A stretch of 64,000 bases of DNA from a phage: NCBI GenBank assembly GCA_036253495.1, contig GCA_036253495.1_4125.1; one strand, given 5' to 3'. Of this stretch, positions 22,682 to 59,634 are shown in pieces. Both the position numbers and the translations under genes were made by a program. Position 1 is the first letter of the stretch; every line of letters begins with the position of its first letter. Below the pieces are notes generated by a model. That model saw only the letters and a list, made by a program, of their open reading frames with translations, was not told where the DNA came from and searched no databases.

Positions 22682-22709
22682 GAGACACTTTTAAATTGCG
22701 TGCTATAAT
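22682..22709 (+). promoter_or_regulatory. sigma70-like promoter GAGACA-N16-TGcTATAAT driving an ORF-free transcript
   Basis: -35 GAGACA 22682-22687, 16-nt spacer, TGcTATAAT 22701-22709. Confidence 0.55.
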
Positions 22710-22715
22710 GTTTCA

Positions 22716-23192
22716 TGTAGTACTGACAATCCTGTTGAATGCAGAAATGCATATAAATTAGAACCTAATCCACTCGAAAATGTAGAGGGTAGATGAGCAG
22801 TTCAACAGTGCGATGAGCAAAAGAAACCCGTTAGATGTGGGCATATTATGAACCCCTCACGGCGACACGGCTCAATAAAGAACTCCGATAAGCATACAGA
22901 GAGTTCCTCGATAGATGTATAAGGATCGCACCTTACCAGATATGCTAAGGGAGTTTGATGATTCATTTCATTAAACAGCCTGAAGTTTGATTGTATAGAC
23001 TTTCAGGTGAGTGTCAGGATGTTTAAGACTGACGACCGTTGCACATGACTGCGATAGAGAGAAACAGAGCAACCCGCTTTCGTTCTTAATATTTTTTACA
23101 ATATAATTACGTTTAAATTTTAAGAAATTCGCAATACAATAATACCGATGCCATCAGCGTCAAGAAACAGAGACTTAATTGTCTCTTTTTTA
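22716..23192 (+). ncRNA. Candidate non-coding RNA (~470 nt), unclassified
   Basis: Promoter-to-terminator interval with no ORF above 17 codons, locally higher GC, several hairpins. No tRNA-like cloverleaf found by eye. Confidence 0.3.
23169..23192 (+). terminator. Intrinsic terminator (weak), followed by a second GC-rich hairpin at 23199-23220
   Basis: agagac-ttaatt-gtctct stem-loop plus TTTTTT, then tcattcccc-tgc-gggggatga hairpin. Confidence 0.45.
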
Positions 23193-23283
23193 TTATCTTC
23201 ATTCCCCTGCGGGGGGATGAAATATCCTCAACAAATCCCGTCAAGTATTAAATCATTTAAAGTTCTTTATAATTATATTAAAA

Positions 23284-23365
23284 TGAATATGAGTTAACGT
23301 AGTTAACGAATATTCTTCAGCTAACGAATGAAATGAGTTAGATGAGTTCAATATAAATCAAATGA
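23284..23365. repeat. Cluster of short degenerate direct repeats (ATGAGTT / AGTTAACG / TAACGAAT / ATGAAT)
   Basis: ATGAGTT x3, AGTTAACG x2 in tandem, TAACGAAT x2, in an AT-rich gap between convergent terminators. Confidence 0.4.
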
Positions 23366-23424
23366 ATTCCTTCAAGAATAAATCTTTTAAGATCATAATT
23401 TCTTTCATCTACTTTGTAAGTAAA

Positions 23425-23467
23425 AACCCAAAAAAACAAAAACAAAAAACCAGCAACAATGTGCTGG
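23425..23467 (-). terminator. Intrinsic terminator for minus-strand genes 23481-24529
   Basis: Hairpin ccagca-caatgt-tgctgg followed on the minus strand by a long U-rich tract. Confidence 0.5.
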
Positions 23468-29524: not shown

Positions 29525-30367
29525 ATGGCTAATTTAAAACTACTACAAGAAGCAATCGAAGCTTTTGCTAACGGCGAGCAAGATGTAGCTGATAAAAAAA
29601 TGCGTAAGTACTTTGTTGAACAAGCACAAGAAATTAACAAAGAACTAGAAGAAAGCATGGACGACGAAGAATGCTGCGATGAAGACGACAAAGAAGAGAA
29701 ACTAGAAGAAGACTTCGACGTTTCCCCAGATGCTGGTCTTAATAGTCAAATCGAATATTCTCTTGGTGAAGAAGACAAGAGTGCTGAAGATGATATCGAA
29801 TTCCAAGCTGGTGAAGAAGATTCTGAAGGTGAAGTTGGTGCAGAAGGTGAAGAAGTCCCTTCCGAAGACCAATGGGCTTCCATTCAAGATGCTTTCCGTG
29901 GCCTACAACAAATGTTTGATGAAATCTCCGGCGAAGGTGAAGTTGACCTAGACGCTGAAGAACCAGTAGGTGGCGAAGAAGAAGTTGATCTAGAAGTTGG
30001 TTCCGAAGACGGCGGTGATGATTTCGCTGATGTTCAATTCGGTGATGAAAAAGTTGGTGAGTCTTTCAAACTAAAAGCAGTTGCTGATGTTGATAAGAAA
30101 GAAAAAGCTGGTGCAAATACTAAATCCCCAGTTGCTTCCCAAGCTAAATCTCCAGTACAAGGCGTAGCTCCAGTAAAAATCGCTAAAAACTCAACTCCAG
30201 TAGTTGATGACAAATTTGATGGCGTAGATACTGAATCTCACACCGTACCAGAAGATATGAATAATGTTATGGATAGCGGCAAAGGCGTAATGAAAGACGT
30301 TAAGAAAGTAACCACTGGTTCTTCTAAGTCTCGTTCCCCACTACCAAAATCACAACCAAAATTCTAA
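29525..30367 (+). CDS. Highly acidic head core/scaffold-like protein (gp68/internal-protein-like)
   Basis: ATG 29525 after GGAGGA. Extremely D/E-rich N-terminal half, Lys/Ser/Pro-rich C-terminus. Located between portal and prohead protease. Confidence 0.5.
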   Translation: MANLKLLQEAIEAFANGEQDVADKKMRKYFVEQAQEINKELEESMDDEECCDEDDKEEKLEEDFDVSPDAGLNSQIEYSLGEEDKSAEDDIEFQAGEEDSEGEVGAEGEEVPSEDQWASIQDAFRGLQQMFDEISGEGEVDLDAEEPVGGEEEVDLEVGSEDGGDDFADVQFGDEKVGESFKLKAVADVDKKEKAGANTKSPVASQAKSPVQGVAPVKIAKNSTPVVDDKFDGVDTESHTVPEDMNNVMDSGKGVMKDVKKVTTGSSKSRSPLPKSQPKF

Positions 30368-47245: not shown

Positions 47246-52147
<4,902 letters not shown>

Positions 52148-53849: not shown

Positions 53850-54668
53850 ATGTCTAAAATAGATGATTTTCTAAAACAAGTCTCAGTACTCGACACTGAA
53901 ACCACTGGTGTTGAGAGTGATGATGATATTATTGAATTTAGTATTTCTTATCCTCAAAATGCACATGAAAATATTGACACAGTTGATAACTATACATTGC
54001 GATATAAACCATTGAAAGACATTCCACCTGAAGCGTCGGCAGTGCATTTTATCAGTACTGAAGATGTTGCAAATTGTATTGGGTATAAAGATGATCTTGA
54101 AAATATTGACGCACTAATGGGGTGTAGAGAATATTATGTTGGTCATAATGTGCAATTTGACCGTAGAATGATGGTTGATAATGAATATAAATATCGTAAC
54201 TCAATTTCACAGTATCTTCTTGATGAGGATAAATGGATTTGTACCCTTCGTTTTGCTAAGAAAATGTTTGCTGAAGATGTAGAATTCAAAAATCTAACAC
54301 TAAGTTATTTGTGGTATAAATTTGGATGTTATCGTGATGTACATCGTCCTGTTAATGCTCATGCTGCAAAAGATGATGTATTCATGTGCTATCAGGTTCT
54401 AATTAAACTTATTGAAGTTGCTATTGAACGTGGTCATATTGATCCAGAACAGGATATTGGTGAACAAATTGTCACATTCTGCAATACACCAATGCGTTAT
54501 CAATTTATGCCATTTGGTAAGCATAAAGGCGAACCAATGAGTACTGTACCATTGAATTACATTGAATGGATGATTACTAATAGTGATATCCTAGACACGA
54601 GTAATCCAAACTGTGATAAAGATTTAGTATATACATTTGAGTACGAGTATAGTAGTCGTACTAACTAA
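53850..54668 (+). CDS. DnaQ-like 3'-5' exonuclease (DEDDh) with C-terminal FGKHKG module
   Basis: Exo I VLDTETTG, Exo II YVGHNVQFD, Exo III HAAKDDVFMCYQ. C-terminal …MPFGKHKGEPMSTVPLNYIEWM…. Confidence 0.75.
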   Translation: MSKIDDFLKQVSVLDTETTGVESDDDIIEFSISYPQNAHENIDTVDNYTLRYKPLKDIPPEASAVHFISTEDVANCIGYKDDLENIDALMGCREYYVGHNVQFDRRMMVDNEYKYRNSISQYLLDEDKWICTLRFAKKMFAEDVEFKNLTLSYLWYKFGCYRDVHRPVNAHAAKDDVFMCYQVLIKLIEVAIERGHIDPEQDIGEQIVTFCNTPMRYQFMPFGKHKGEPMSTVPLNYIEWMITNSDILDTSNPNCDKDLVYTFEYEYSSRTN

Positions 54669-54682
54669 AAGGATATTCATGG

Positions 54683-56167
54683 ATGAATACTTGTAAGCTA
54701 ACCTTATTGGATGAGGTTAATTGTAAATTTGAAGGACTTTCTCCTTCAATTCGTCAAAAGATGATTAGGGCAACTGAATATGTGTTGCCTTATGCTAAAT
54801 TCACCCCAGCAGGTAGAATCGGGCGTTGGGATGGAAAAGTTCAATTTATGAATTTAGGTGGAAGCACTTACTTTCATATGCTTGACAAACTTTTACCTAT
54901 TCTTGAAGAAGCTAACATTGACATTGAACTTGAAGACCATAGACCAAATTATGGATTCAATTTTGAACCTATTGATGAAAATATCTTTAGTGATGTGGTT
55001 TTTGGTGCTGGACACCACATGGAAGGTAAGTCAATCAAGCTCAGGGAGCACCAGGTTAATGCAGTTAATGCTTGCCTTGCTAACCCACATGGTTTATTAT
55101 TAGCTGCTACTGGTGCGGGTAAGACGCTAATCACAGCAGCATTATCCAAGAAGGTCCAAGAGTATGGACGTTCTGTTATTATTGTACCTAGTACTGATCT
55201 AGTTCAACAGACATATGATGATTATGTCATGTGTGGACTAGACACTGGTGTTTTTTATGGTGCACAAAAGGATTTTGGTCACCAACACACAATCACAACA
55301 TGGCAATCATTCAACTCTTTATGGAAAAAGACGAAGAAGGGTGAAATTGAACTAACTGAACAAGACGTTCATGATTTCATCGATGGTGTTGTGTGTGTTA
55401 TCGTTGATGAATGTCAAGGTGCTGGTGGTGATGCATTAGTGCAGGTTCTATCAAAGGTAATGAACAATGTCCCGTTGCGTTGGGGACTAACTGGTACAAT
55501 ACCAAAAGATCCAGTAGTTGCAGCAAAGATAAAATGTAATGTTGGTGATGTGATTTTCAAAATCACTGCAAAAGAATTACAAGATAAACAAATTCTAAGT
55601 ACCTGTAACGTAAACTGTATCAAATTAAAAAGTAATTTAAAATTTGCATCATATGCAGAAGAATTAAAATACTTAGTAACTGACCGTGACCGAATGGCAT
55701 ATGTGGCATCTTTGATAAGTGCACTGTCTGAATCTGGTAACACGTTGGTTCTTGTTGACCGTTTGGAAGCTGGTGAATTGTTATGTGAATTTTTGGGAAT
55801 CCCCAAAACTGAATTTGTTCGTGGTGAAACGAAGAAGAAAGACCGTGAATCATCATATGGTGAAATTCGCTGGGCTGACAACAAAATACTCATTGCAACA
55901 TATGGTGTAGCTAGTACTGGTATTAGTATTTCACGTTTATATAACGTAGTACTGATAGAGCCAGGTAAAAGCTTTGTGCGAACTATACAGTCCATTGGAC
56001 GTGGGTTGCGTAGAGCAGAAGATAAAGACCACGTAGAAATTTATGATATAAGTGGATCTAATAAGTACAGTGCAAAACACTTACGTGAAAGAATTGCATA
56101 TTATAAAGAAGCACAATATCCACATAGTGTAATCGACGTGAAAGATTGGGAAAATACAGCGGGATAA
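54683..56167 (+). CDS. SF2 DNA helicase (UvsW-like, putative)
   Basis: Walker A AATGAGKT, DExx box VIVDECQ, later motifs TYGVASTGISI and QSIGRGLR. Confidence 0.7.
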   Translation: MNTCKLTLLDEVNCKFEGLSPSIRQKMIRATEYVLPYAKFTPAGRIGRWDGKVQFMNLGGSTYFHMLDKLLPILEEANIDIELEDHRPNYGFNFEPIDENIFSDVVFGAGHHMEGKSIKLREHQVNAVNACLANPHGLLLAATGAGKTLITAALSKKVQEYGRSVIIVPSTDLVQQTYDDYVMCGLDTGVFYGAQKDFGHQHTITTWQSFNSLWKKTKKGEIELTEQDVHDFIDGVVCVIVDECQGAGGDALVQVLSKVMNNVPLRWGLTGTIPKDPVVAAKIKCNVGDVIFKITAKELQDKQILSTCNVNCIKLKSNLKFASYAEELKYLVTDRDRMAYVASLISALSESGNTLVLVDRLEAGELLCEFLGIPKTEFVRGETKKKDRESSYGEIRWADNKILIATYGVASTGISISRLYNVVLIEPGKSFVRTIQSIGRGLRRAEDKDHVEIYDISGSNKYSAKHLRERIAYYKEAQYPHSVIDVKDWENTAG

Positions 56168-56200
56168 TCCCGCTGTTAATGATATAATGGACTGTATAAT
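56161..56200 (+). promoter_or_regulatory. Tandem -10 elements (GGGATA-N16-TATAAT and TGtATAAT)
   Basis: TATAAT at 56183-56188 and TGtATAAT at 56193-56200. The -35-like GGGATA sits inside a 9-bp hairpin whose loop holds the helicase stop codon. Confidence 0.4.
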
Positions 56201-56221
56201 AAATCAAGGATGTTAACAAAT

Positions 56222-56647
56222 ATGGAACTTAAATCGAGTATCGCATTTATCTGCGACCAAGAAACTTTAGACATTATGGATGTGTTATTGAATGATGATA
56301 ATATCATGGATGACATGGTATCTTCATTGGATTATATTTCCGAATTAGAAACAGATGACACAAATGTATGGCGTTGTAACACAGATGGTGATTCATGGGT
56401 TAATATCTATGAATTACAGCAACGCATTGATTCTAAATTTGAATCACTAAAATATGATATCATTTATGCAAGTACTGATTCTAAAACATTCGTTGATATT
56501 GTTAGTCTAAGTGGAAACTTTGATTCATATCTTGATACTGATACTGATAAGATTCAAGAACTTTGTGATACCTATGGATTAGAATTTTATGGGTGTGATG
56601 AAGAAGAAGATTATTATGATGAAGAAGACGAAGATTCATTATACTAA
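56222..56647 (+). CDS. Highly acidic hypothetical protein (candidate DNA mimic)
   Basis: ~141 aa, very D/E-rich throughout with a C-terminal DEEEDYYDEEDEDSLY tail. Start could also be ATG 56210. Confidence 0.5.
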   Translation: MELKSSIAFICDQETLDIMDVLLNDDNIMDDMVSSLDYISELETDDTNVWRCNTDGDSWVNIYELQQRIDSKFESLKYDIIYASTDSKTFVDIVSLSGNFDSYLDTDTDKIQELCDTYGLEFYGCDEEEDYYDEEDEDSLY

Positions 56648-56656
56648 GGAGACAAT

Positions 56657-57154
56657 ATGAACGTATTAACCCCAGAAAATAATTCATTTGATATGGATTT
56701 GGTTACTGAACACATTCCAGAAGAAATGTATTGTGTGTTGGATTTGAGTGCAAATGGTGATTCAGATTTTTATTTCCGACATATTCTAAACACTGTATCT
56801 TTTAATAGTATCAGTGCAGATCTTCAAATTGGTGATAAGGTTATTCAAGTACCATTGGGATGGCAAATTATGCTAGGTGATGAAGAATCAGGTATGGTTG
56901 AGATGTGTACTATTGAAAACATCTTAAACATGAAAGAGCCTAAAGCATTTGTATACAACCCGATTCGTTCGATGTATCCAAAATTCGAGCCAGTAAAAGT
57001 ACTAAGAGTATTTGCACTTACAACTAAGTGGCAGATTCCTATGTTACCTAAAAAGAATTTACTATGTGTTCCATTGAGTAGTGGTGATAATCCACCATGT
57101 GTTTACTTCGCCGATGAGAACGAAAAGATTCAAGACTTATACTTAGGAGTATAA
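56657..57154 (+). CDS. Hypothetical protein
   Basis: 165-aa ORF; no recognised motif. Confidence 0.5.
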   Translation: MNVLTPENNSFDMDLVTEHIPEEMYCVLDLSANGDSDFYFRHILNTVSFNSISADLQIGDKVIQVPLGWQIMLGDEESGMVEMCTIENILNMKEPKAFVYNPIRSMYPKFEPVKVLRVFALTTKWQIPMLPKKNLLCVPLSSGDNPPCVYFADENEKIQDLYLGV

Positions 57155-57158
57155 AATA

Positions 57159-58001
57159 GTGTTAGATTTCAGTAATGTTAAAAGTAAATCGTCTGATGAA
57201 GTTATTAAACAAGAAAGTCATTCATTTTCTATTAATGATTTTCTTAAACATATTGACAGGGCTGATTACAAATATTACTCTGAAATGACCGAAGAAGAAC
57301 GTAAAGATTTCACACCTTATACTGTTCTTCGTTGGGTAAGTTCGTTGGATGATTCTTTGCAAGTAACTTACCCAAGTAGTAAAGTTGAAAGCGTTTTTGG
57401 TAAATGGAAAGCTGGTGGCAAAGATGCACTTACTGAATTAATCAATGAATTAAATTCAAGTGGTGTAAATGTGTCATCAGTGACAAAGTACTGTCATGCT
57501 GATTATGATTGGAGAATCAAGTTTGCAGTACAGGGTCAGTCCGATGCAAATAAATTGATTGCAGCCATGAATGATTTTAGCATTTCAGGGTCGGAAGTGA
57601 TTTCATTGGTTGATAGCACAACAGTAAAATACCAATTGATTATGTTAAATGATATGGTCAATGATGGTTTCTGGGATATGAAAGAACACCCTGAACTAGT
57701 TTATCAATTGATGTGTACTGTTCAGGATATGGTTGGTGGTAAAGAATTACCACGTAGTTGGCTTAACTTTTCAAAGAGTTTAAAACATGTAAACAATGCA
57801 TTATTTGACTTGATTAAAAGTACACAACCAAGTTCAGTTGCCAATCAAATGAACGAGGATGAGTATAAAATCATCTTATTACAATACACTAAGAAATCAT
57901 TCGAAACTTTACTTGACAACATGGGTTATCAAGATAAAGATTCAAAAGCAATGATGAAACTATTCAAAGAAGAATGTAAGAAATATGGCAAAGATATCTA
58001 A
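57159..58001 (+). CDS. Hypothetical protein (GTG start)
   Basis: 280-aa ORF starting at GTG 57159, 9 nt after AGGAG. Confidence 0.5.
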   Translation: MLDFSNVKSKSSDEVIKQESHSFSINDFLKHIDRADYKYYSEMTEEERKDFTPYTVLRWVSSLDDSLQVTYPSSKVESVFGKWKAGGKDALTELINELNSSGVNVSSVTKYCHADYDWRIKFAVQGQSDANKLIAAMNDFSISGSEVISLVDSTTVKYQLIMLNDMVNDGFWDMKEHPELVYQLMCTVQDMVGGKELPRSWLNFSKSLKHVNNALFDLIKSTQPSSVANQMNEDEYKIILLQYTKKSFETLLDNMGYQDKDSKAMMKLFKEECKKYGKDI

Positions 58002-58692
58002 ACCTGTATATCAATGTAAATTTTGTGATCGTGAATTTAAACGTGAAGACACAGTACATTCTCACAAATGTGAAAAGCGTGATAGATATGAAAATCGAGA
58101 CAGCCGCACCATGCGTGAGGCTTTTCGTTTATATATGCAATTCATGGAAACTAACAATTTCAAAATTAAAAAAGATGTAGAACCATATATTAGTTTTATC
58201 AAGTCAAGATACTTTAAAGATTTCTATGATTTTGCAGAATACTATCTGAATAATAGGGATATATTGCATATAGATGATTTCACTTTACATCTTATGAGAA
58301 CTAATGTTCCTATTATGCAATGGAGCACCTACAAAGCTAAGGATGAATGGATACTTTCATGTATACGAAATGAGCACCCAAACGATGCCGTTGCAAGAAG
58401 CGTAAATGCTTTAGTAGAATGGGAACAAATGACAAATAATCCGTGGAATACATTCTTTAAGAATGTTAGTTCTGCACGTTTGATTTCTTGGATTGAAAGT
58501 GGTAAAATATCACCTTGGTTGATATGGACTGCCCCAGTGAGTTCATCCAATGAATTGTTCTCACGACTATCAGATTCTGAATTTGAATATATACTTAAAT
58601 ACATCGATCCTAGCTTTTTTGAAATTAAAAAGTTGAAATATAAGAAAGAGTTTGAGGATATAAGAAGTATGTTAACTCAGGTGGGTTTATGA
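57985..58692 (+). CDS. Hypothetical protein with N-terminal zinc-knuckle (CxxC…HxH)
   Basis: YQCKFCDREFKREDTVHSHKC at the N-terminus; 235 aa. Confidence 0.5.
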   Translation: MAKISKPVYQCKFCDREFKREDTVHSHKCEKRDRYENRDSRTMREAFRLYMQFMETNNFKIKKDVEPYISFIKSRYFKDFYDFAEYYLNNRDILHIDDFTLHLMRTNVPIMQWSTYKAKDEWILSCIRNEHPNDAVARSVNALVEWEQMTNNPWNTFFKNVSSARLISWIESGKISPWLIWTAPVSSSNELFSRLSDSEFEYILKYIDPSFFEIKKLKYKKEFEDIRSMLTQVGL

Positions 58693-59018
58693 ATAATAAA
58701 AGTATATACAATAAAATACCAGAAGGGTACGTTCCTGTACCTAAATCGGACAAAAGTAAAGAATTACAATTACTTCGTCAAGGAAGCATAACTGAAATAA
58801 CATTGGGTGACAAAACGTTCCAAGTTCATGATCCAGTAAAAATAGAACAATTGATTAAGCTAGTCGAGAGGCATGAAGAACGTTTACATTCTGTGTCTAA
58901 TGAGTCAGCACAGTTGAAAAGAAAGATTCAGTACATGGAAAACGAAATACGAACCTTAAGAAATTCTATTAATAAATTACAGGATCAAATAAAGAATGCA
59001 GGATTCAACCAATTCTAA
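58689..59018 (+). CDS. Hypothetical coiled-coil protein
   Basis: 109 aa; C-terminal heptad-like segment (…LKRKIQYMENEIRTLRNSINKLQDQIK…). Confidence 0.5.
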   Translation: MNNKSIYNKIPEGYVPVPKSDKSKELQLLRQGSITEITLGDKTFQVHDPVKIEQLIKLVERHEERLHSVSNESAQLKRKIQYMENEIRTLRNSINKLQDQIKNAGFNQF

Positions 59019-59634
59019 TCATTACAGAAAAGCTAGAACAGATATTGATATTGATTTTAAAGATAGTAAATCTGTCATAGCTCAATTGCCATGTGTAAGA
59101 AGTACTGAAAAGATTACAGAAGATGGATTGATTGCACATAATAGTGGTGTACACTTTGATAATATTCCAATCGATCCAATAACTGGTTTGGCGAGTATAC
59201 AATATAAAGAAGCCGAAAGATTGGGGTATCAGAAGGTTGATATCCTTTCACAATCGGCTTACATGTATGTTCGTGACAGAGAACATCTAAAGGAACTTAT
59301 GAACAGAGAGCCTAATTGGGATCTGTTGTTAGAACCAGAAATTGTTGATCATTTATCACAAATTAAAAAGCATATAACTTTACTTAATGTTTGGAAACCC
59401 CGTTCTATAGACGAGTTGGCTATGTTTATTGCTATGATTCGCCCAGGGAAACGAAATTGTCAAAGTATGAACTCTTGGTCTGAAGTAGAATCGGTTATTT
59501 GGGATTATAGTAGTATTGGGCTAGATAGTGAGGGCAAAAAATTGCGTTATTTTAAAAAACCACATGCTTATGCTTATAGCTTAATGATTGTGGTACAATT
59601 AAACGCATTGGTTGAACATCTTACTTCTTCTTAA
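58996..59634 (+). CDS. Hypothetical protein with DnaE (Pol III alpha)-like motifs
   Basis: IDELAMFIAMIRPGK and KPHAYAYSLMIVVQLNALVEH resemble DnaE segments FEDMIALVALFRPGP and [20 protein letters not shown] from memory. Only ~212 aa. Confidence 0.35.
   Translation: MQDSTNSNHYRKARTDIDIDFKDSKSVIAQLPCVRSTEKITEDGLIAHNSGVHFDNIPIDPITGLASIQYKEAERLGYQKVDILSQSAYMYVRDREHLKELMNREPNWDLLLEPEIVDHLSQIKKHITLLNVWKPRSIDELAMFIAMIRPGKRNCQSMNSWSEVESVIWDYSSIGLDSEGKKLRYFKKPHAYAYSLMIVVQLNALVEHLTSS

Follow-up and report, generated by a model that had tools for sequence, protein, structure and literature searches.

A strongly acidic protein encoded after the UvsW-like helicase gene of Rak2-like jumbo phages as a candidate replication and recombination adaptor

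Acidic C-terminal tails tipped by an aromatic or hydrophobic residue serve as docking and self-gating elements in Escherichia coli's single-stranded DNA-binding protein (SSB), T7 gp2.5 and T4 gp32. E. coli SSB ends in DDDIPF, a tip recognised by many host enzymes, and the T4 helicase UvsW is said, in the title of a 2013 paper by Perumal and colleagues, to bind the acidic tail of gp32. Tails of this kind bind partner proteins (PMC10359462; PMC11551737), T4 gp32 recruits its partners via its C-terminal region (PMC11551737), and the acidic tails of SSBs are described as competitors of single-stranded DNA (ssDNA), both using one surface (Marintcheva et al., 2008, cited in PMC10359462). A further small protein of T4, UvsW.1, is thought to partner UvsW (PMC7824862). 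Here we describe a small, strongly acidic protein encoded next to a UvsW-like helicase gene in a 64,000-nucleotide stretch of phage DNA (contig GCA_036253495.1_4125.1, hereafter the window). Its gene is a fixed, lineage-wide member of a replication and recombination module and carries a tail feature that the SSB of the same module lacks.

The window is a piece of the genome of a Rak2-like (Asteriusvirus-type) jumbo myovirus, a coliphage, with a G+C content of 35.7%. Over the 5 kb around the gene, identity is 99.3% to Escherichia phage A4 (an Asteriusvirus of 355 kb) and about 81% to 121Q, PBECO4 and relatives of these. The open reading frame (ORF) on the + strand at 56210-56647 reads as 145 amino acids (aa), and its product ends in GCDEEEDYYDEEDEDSLY. 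The original prediction placed the gene at these coordinates with a product of about 141 aa; the gene is real, with its start moved to the second ATG, at 56222, which is almost certainly the true one and yields 141 aa. This start is preferred because A4_37 is annotated there, because the PHROG profile and all homologues begin with MEL(R/K)SS, and because the upstream ATG is not present in the related phage Turkey3, which has AAG in its place. A Shine-Dalgarno sequence, AAGGA, lies at 56206-56210. The gene and the two parts of its product are as follows.

56222-56647 (stop included), + strand: gene of the acidic protein, PHROG 16541, defined by the ORF and its translation, the A4_37 start and the PHROG match.
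56222-56593, + strand: predicted globular alpha/beta domain, residues 1-124, net charge -22.
56594-56644, + strand: acidic tail CDEEEDYYDEEDEDSLY, residues 125-141, net charge -11, with a terminal Tyr, predicted to be disordered from the model's local confidence and from family comparison.

The 141-aa product contains 26 Asp, 14 Glu, 5 Lys and 2 Arg residues (28% acidic, net charge -33, pI ~4.05), and is the most acidic among the long ORFs of the window, with an acidic fraction at z=+3.2 and a net charge per residue at z=-4.5 relative to the 45 + strand ORFs of at least 90 aa. It had been described as rich in Asp and Glu along its length, which agrees with this composition and with the acidity of both body and tail. 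The acidity of the body recurs in 78/78 family members, with net charges of -14 to -27. At 29525-30367 (+ strand) lies the second most acidic ORF of the window, with 280 aa, 27.5% Asp/Glu and a net charge of -48; it matches PHROG 15696, 'virion structural protein', and is possibly a scaffold or internal head protein.

Although the sequence of the tail is not conserved and both its sequence and its length vary between homologues, a simple rule is kept. The tail is acidic in 77/78 members, with net charges of -8 to -17, and is 16-37 residues long in all members but one; the exception, P0079, has only a 5-residue stub with a net charge of -2. An aromatic residue (Tyr, Trp or Phe) is found within the last 3 residues in 77/78 members and within the last 5 in 78/78, and the tails close with Tyr, or with Trp and a following Asp or Asn, and not with Pro-Phe. 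Several Tyr are present in the tail in the window, two of them as an internal YY pair. Across the wide family the invariant residues are D101 and Y118 alone, and what selection preserves is composition and the tail rule. The tail resembles those of E. coli SSB, T7 gp2.5, T7 gp4 and T4 gp32 (A-domain) in being C-terminal, strongly acidic and apparently disordered, in having a conserved hydrophobic or aromatic residue at or beside its end, and in being encoded among replication genes. Unlike them, it is attached neither to an SSB nor to a helicase but to a small acidic domain that is not an oligonucleotide-binding (OB) fold and is very unlikely to bind DNA.

An AlphaFold2 model built from a 35-sequence alignment is of moderate confidence, with a predicted local distance difference test (pLDDT) of 75.7 and a predicted template modelling score (pTM) of 0.68. 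Its elements follow the order beta-alpha-beta-beta-alpha-beta-beta-beta-alpha, and residues 127-141, where pLDDT falls below 50, are predicted to be disordered. The folded part is predicted to be a small alpha/beta ferredoxin-like domain whose nearest match is Api92/YubB (Pfam DUF1281_C, PF18406; PDB 2IJR), a resemblance in a moderate-confidence model and at the level of fold only. Homology to YubB of the F plasmid is unsupported at the sequence level: hhalign of the family profile against it gave a probability of 0.15%, while the recovered YubB sequence itself does match PF18406. A literature search on DUF1281, YubB and Api92 returned nothing on function, and papers on the leading region are silent on them.

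The acidic protein matches PHROG 16541, a family of unknown function, at E 5.6e-70 over residues 5-143 of the 145-aa reading. A search of 5.8 billion proteins recovered 60 homologues, none of them named, and tblastn found the gene in 73 phage records, those listed all being Rak2-like jumbo phages; the host genera of the listed records are Escherichia, Klebsiella, Salmonella, Erwinia, Yersinia, Serratia, Cronobacter, Pectobacterium and Xanthomonas. A family profile run exhaustively against 1.84 billion representative proteins returned 20 clusters, all within the family except one false positive (P0078); 17 are full-length distant members of 130-156 aa and one (P0068) is a fragment. Across the searches run here the family is restricted to the Rak2-like lineage, marine metagenomes included, and scans of IMG/VR with three distant members gave no loci. 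Neither the single sequence nor a 25-member profile matched Pfam, NCBIfam or PDB sequences, and the 25 members searched against Pfam at E up to 10 gave no match, Api92/YubB included. The published papers on phages Sharanji and fEgEco12 do not mention the gene. This uncharacterised conserved family is best filed as a new version of the acidic docking-tail theme, outside every known family.

The company that the gene keeps is constant. The neighbours that bear on its role are the following.

54683-56167, + strand: UvsW-like superfamily 2 (SF2) helicase, 494 aa, upstream neighbour (Pfam ResIII 1.6e-16, DEAD, Helicase_C).
56657-57154, + strand: free-standing protein of Hint (intein-like) fold, 165 aa, PHROG 11279, downstream neighbour.
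51074-52147, + strand: gp32-like SSB without an acidic tail (Pfam gp32, PHROG 1192), candidate partner.

The helicase gene is annotated uvsW in Turkey3, and its orthologue in phage CBB was matched to T4 UvsW (PMC5259590). The acidic gene starts 54 nt downstream of it, so the earlier statement that the gene adjoins a helicase was correct. The same arrangement, with the acidic gene directly 3' of the UvsW-like helicase gene, is found in 14/14 loci read, namely in the window, in phages A4 and Turkey3, and in eleven loci from metagenomes, which carry nine distinct homologues, down to ~22-29% identity. The module runs from a gp32-like SSB (preceded by terminase and structural protein genes) through UvsX, UvsY, a DnaQ-like exonuclease and the UvsW-like helicase to the acidic protein. 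It continues with the Hint-fold protein, a protein of 150 to 280 aa, a zinc-finger protein, a protein of ~100 aa, a fragment of the alpha subunit of DNA polymerase III (Pol III alpha) and, further on, primase and a DnaB-like helicase. In distant relatives a terminator-like hairpin precedes the acidic gene, or else there is a 4-nt overlap with the helicase stop codon, as in loci L003 and L004, where the overlap points to translational coupling to the helicase. Comparison of the window with four distant loci gives 29-42% identity for the acidic protein and 30-46% for the module's exonuclease and other accessory proteins; by this measure the acidic protein is not evolving faster than its accessory neighbours. 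In the A4 record, where several neighbours are labelled structural, the acidic protein has no such label.

In the window, the gene is also preceded by a promoter-like motif that belongs to a class shared with other DNA-metabolism genes.

56161-56188, + strand: promoter-like motif GGGATA-N13-TGATATAAT with an extended -10 element, member of the phage promoter class.
17979, 22682, 38094, 50886, 50962 and 61008, + strand: the other matches to the class pattern, G[GA]GA[CT]A-N13-TGNTATAAT.

The pattern is matched 7 times in the window and always on the + strand, compared with 0 in 100 shuffles, and the copy upstream of the acidic gene is identical in Turkey3, which is 81% identical overall. Copies precede a gp55-like late sigma factor gene with SbcCD-like genes, a regulator gene with that of the family B DNA polymerase (the PolB operon), the SSB gene (as a tandem pair) and the primase and DnaB-like helicase genes. 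Judging by the genes it precedes, the class is probably a middle or DNA-metabolism regulon. The arrangements seen in distant relatives suggest that a private promoter is not universal, while co-expression with the helicase block is.

The closest positional counterpart of the gene is T4 uvsW.1, which immediately follows uvsW and encodes a 76-aa product; the sequence was recovered from the T4 record, confirmed against PDB 2JPN, and has the C-terminus ELEDSDDEVEESF. Its last residues are DEVEESF, and orthologues in four other T4-like phages end in QEVEDF, GEEEKF, EEPEEDF and EQEEEF, so that an acidic, aromatic-ended tail is present in 5/5 stand-alone UvsW.1 copies of T4-like phages. UvsW.1 (PF11637) and the acidic protein are alike in being small, acidic, encoded immediately 3' of uvsW and equipped with such a tail. 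They differ in size and fold, UvsW.1 being helical and the 141-aa protein predicted to be alpha/beta, with eight strands in the model. No homology links them: BLASTP aligned only a low-complexity stretch of 19 residues (E 2.7), PF11637 matches T4 UvsW.1 and not the PHROG 16541 family, and, among the records listed, UvsW.1 homologues were confined to those of 141-235 kb, which were Straboviridae where checked and included no Rak2-like phage. Two distantly related phage groups thus place a small protein with an acidic tail after the UvsW helicase gene, and the acidic protein is a positional analogue of T4 UvsW.1 and probably a functional one.

The SSB of the module differs from T4 gp32 at its C-terminus. 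Its OB core is followed by a long neutral linker rich in Pro, Thr, Ala, Gln and Val and then by a conserved basic amphipathic motif, a pattern found in 9/9 lineages examined, with net charges of -2 to +4; the basic end is also present in PA5oct-like phages. Phage Cassandra, a PA5oct-like relative that has no acidic gene, carries an acidic and aromatic patch, IEDDNDDLPWED, in its SSB linker, and locus L009, whose family member is almost tail-less, has TTEVPWT in the SSB linker. This complementary pattern between SSB linker and small-protein tail is suggestive, in one or two lineages. Several T4 replisome accessory proteins were not found in phages of this group by published analyses (PMC5259590).

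Taken together, these features lead us to propose, tentatively, that the acidic protein is a non-enzymatic accessory adaptor of replication and recombination that docks by its SSB-type tail. The proposal draws on the fixed place of the gene 3' of the UvsW-like helicase gene within the module, on the promoter class common to the SSB, PolB, primase-DnaB and gp55-like sigma genes, and on a tail rule that is kept in all but one member while the tail sequence is not. It draws also on the parallel with UvsW.1, on the recruitment of partners by the C-terminus of T4 gp32 and the binding of UvsW claimed for its acidic tail, where the phage's own SSB has no such tail, on the linker patch of Cassandra, and on a divergence that matches that of the accessory proteins of the module, with no virion label in A4. 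In such a scheme, the protein would be made together with other DNA-metabolism proteins from a middle-type promoter, and in some relatives would be coupled to the helicase. Its acidic alpha/beta domain would hold a basic surface of a partner, the best candidate being the basic amphipathic C-terminal helix of the SSB and the alternative being the helicase. The tail would dock, as the tails of E. coli SSB, T7 gp2.5, T7 gp4 and T4 gp32 do, in a basic or hydrophobic pocket or in the ssDNA-binding groove of another replisome or repair protein, and docking would recruit or gate the bound protein at forks and recombination intermediates. Every binding partner in this scheme, and any effect on the activity of the helicase or the SSB, is something that we infer.

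Several observations weigh against the adaptor. The analogy with UvsW.1, a protein of undefined role, carries over little mechanism. In PA5oct-like Pseudomonas phages the acidic family is missing while the helicase, the 165-aa protein, PHROG 11758, the zinc-finger protein and the polymerase fragment are all there, which implies that the protein is not indispensable to the module. Their slot between the helicase and Hint-fold genes holds an 83-aa ORF that is not acidic (phage Cassandra, L018 3942-4193); its motif VFLNIISGDFD resembles the most conserved strand-turn of the family, TFVDIVSLSGNFD. The resemblance lacks statistical support: hhalign was not significant, and the ORF has a single homologue cluster, too few for a profile. 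Small acidic phage proteins are common, and the gene after uvsW in a cyanophage and a rhizobiophage encodes an unrelated acidic Sm-like protein without such a tail; Vi01-like and Campylobacter phages have yet another neighbour there. The complementarity between SSB linker and small protein noted above rests on one or two lineages, and the body of the acidic protein is charged so strongly that it would also suit a DNA mimic. Should the protein nevertheless prove to be the missing docking element, it would show that an SSB's recruiting tail can reside on a polypeptide of its own, and there would be a first functional handle on T4 UvsW.1, whose structure has stood without a known function since 2007. 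Rak2-like jumbo phages are under development for therapy while most of their replication module is unannotated.

It is possible, though on balance unlikely, that the protein acts on the host instead, its acidic domain and tail occupying the DNA-binding site of an enzyme that threatens linear phage DNA during replication or recombination, or silences it, such as RecBCD, a type I restriction enzyme, H-NS or RNA polymerase. The extreme charge density fits such a mimic, as does the acidity of the folded body, kept across the family where single residues are not; there is no recognisable catalytic motif, and absence from the PA5oct-like relatives, which infect another host genus, fits an accessory role directed at the host. 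In small size, very high negative charge density and lack of a catalytic motif the protein is like Ocr, ArdA, Arn, Gam and T7 gp5.9. The RecBCD inhibitors lambda Gam and T7 gp5.9 are, moreover, encoded inside replication and recombination gene blocks. Unlike all five, the acidic protein is the product of a core syntenic gene of the replication module, and it gave no sequence match to a named DNA mimic, none of which appeared among the fold matches of the moderate-confidence model either; DNA mimics are not known to share a common fold, however, so that the missing fold match is not decisive. Against the mimic stands the strict synteny and vertical conservation of the gene in phages of hosts from Escherichia to Xanthomonas and in marine metagenomes, unlike the typically patchy anti-defence genes, together with a divergence no faster than that of its neighbours. 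The promoter class is shared with replication genes and would be late for anti-restriction proper, and the protein has no virion annotation that would suggest co-injection. Finally, a conserved, disordered, aromatic-tipped tail is the signature of replisome docking tails and is foreign to rigid DNA-mimic scaffolds. If the protein were a host-directed mimic after all, it would add a new fold to that class.

It was in this form, as a DNA mimic or anti-restriction factor, that the original prediction had cast the protein. Polyanionic mimicry was a reasonable idea for a small, extremely acidic product that does not look like an enzyme, and the structure prediction it suggested as a check did yield a fold, the ferredoxin-like one, with no named DNA mimic among the fold matches of the model. 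The anti-restriction part found no support. Classical anti-restriction is unlikely because the gene is a vertically inherited member of the core module, located away from variable early or accessory regions, under a replication-class promoter, which is not a canonical early sigma-70 promoter, and because the protein has no similarity to known anti-restriction proteins and no virion mark. The immediate-early expression or delivery with the DNA that characterises Ocr and ArdA was not seen here, as far as sequence allows this to be judged.

A more specific arrangement, which we consider rather improbable, is an SSB made of two polypeptides, in which the basic helix of the SSB would bind the acidic domain and the small protein would supply the aromatic-tipped tail in trans. 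The gp32-like SSB would then have lost, or never had, an acidic tail for recruitment and self-gating; the tail in trans would recruit the UvsW-like helicase and other enzymes and gate ssDNA binding, and T4 UvsW.1 would be an independent invention of a detached tail.

Very unlikely, in our estimate, is a decoy of the C-terminal tip of host SSB, which would titrate exonuclease I, RecQ, RecG, PriA and the chi subunit, so that host repair and nuclease activities were diverted or disarmed during infection. Both the tail rule and expression with DNA-metabolism genes, as the promoter class suggests, are what a decoy would require, yet the tails lack the Pro-Phe end of host SSB, phages whose hosts differ greatly, marine ones included, follow the rule too, and the conserved folded domain would be left without a role.

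We give a similarly small chance to a role as partner or regulator of a protein encoded in the block 56657-59634, be it the adjacent Hint-fold protein or another, uncharacterised one. The acidic protein might, for instance, serve as chaperone or assembly factor of a replisome sub-complex specific to the lineage and containing the split minimal Pol III alpha. The Hint-fold gene directly follows the acidic gene, with gaps of 9-85 nt, in 11/12 relatives' loci read, and the block holds several conserved proteins of unassigned role besides the Pol III alpha fragment (PMC7824862). Against this, the PA5oct-like phages retain the Hint-fold protein and the other proteins of the block listed above without the acidic family, and at the sole interruption a GIY-YIG homing endonuclease gene separates the two genes (locus L025, 8501-9205). 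The Hint-fold protein is also far more conserved (52-76% identity vs 29-42%), so that tight co-evolution of the two is not evident. The polymerase fragment itself (212 aa, annotated Pol III alpha, PHROG 11778; 58996-59634, + strand), which lies in the same block as the DnaQ-like exonuclease (53850-54668, + strand), agrees with the report of a split minimal Pol III alpha in group 2.2 jumbo phages (PMC7824862). Mobile elements occur elsewhere in the module of relatives too, as terminase genes with intein or LAGLIDADG signatures (L003, 1-1570; L026, 1-1278).

Readings of the protein as one of the missing T4 parts, namely a sliding-clamp domain, gp33 or gp59, were rejected on fold and charge, the model being ferredoxin-like, and gp33 is further disfavoured because group 2 jumbo phages are reported to have a gp33 orthologue of their own, with a helix-turn-helix (PMC7824862). 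An enzymatic reading, with a palm or nucleotidyltransferase-like Asp motif near SGNFDSYLDTD, was dismissed since only D86 and D101 there are conserved across the wide family.

The leader of the acidic gene contains two further elements that overlap or adjoin the promoter-like motif.

56195-56200, + strand: second TATAAT, present in the window and A4, TATGAC in Turkey3, without a GGGACA-type element at the right spacing.
56156-56176, + strand: perfect 9-bp hairpin ACAGCGGGA-TAA-TCCCGCTGT, whose loop is the helicase stop codon, with no T-run after it.

The gene had been credited with its own tandem -10 elements. Both TATAAT hexamers exist, at 56183-56188 and at 56195-56200, but only the first is kept in Turkey3 and lies within the supported motif. 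The second, unconserved and outside that motif, is probably not a promoter element, which leaves one credible promoter and rules out the tandem reading. The CBB-type combination of a -35 motif TGAAAC with TATAAT showed no enrichment in the window. The hairpin is kept in Turkey3 and A4 and overlaps the -35-like element; it received no intrinsic-terminator call. Folding of the RNA from 56150-56225 gave a centroid of -15.3 kcal/mol, consisting of the hairpin alone, and a minimum free energy of -16.5 kcal/mol (z -2.6 vs shuffles).

One copy of the promoter class heads a stretch free of ORFs. The ~750 nt at 22710-23460 (+ strand), after the promoter at 22682-22709, contain neither an ORF of at least 60 aa on the + strand nor a tRNA, gave no match in Rfam at E up to 0.1, and are a candidate for a phage non-coding RNA.

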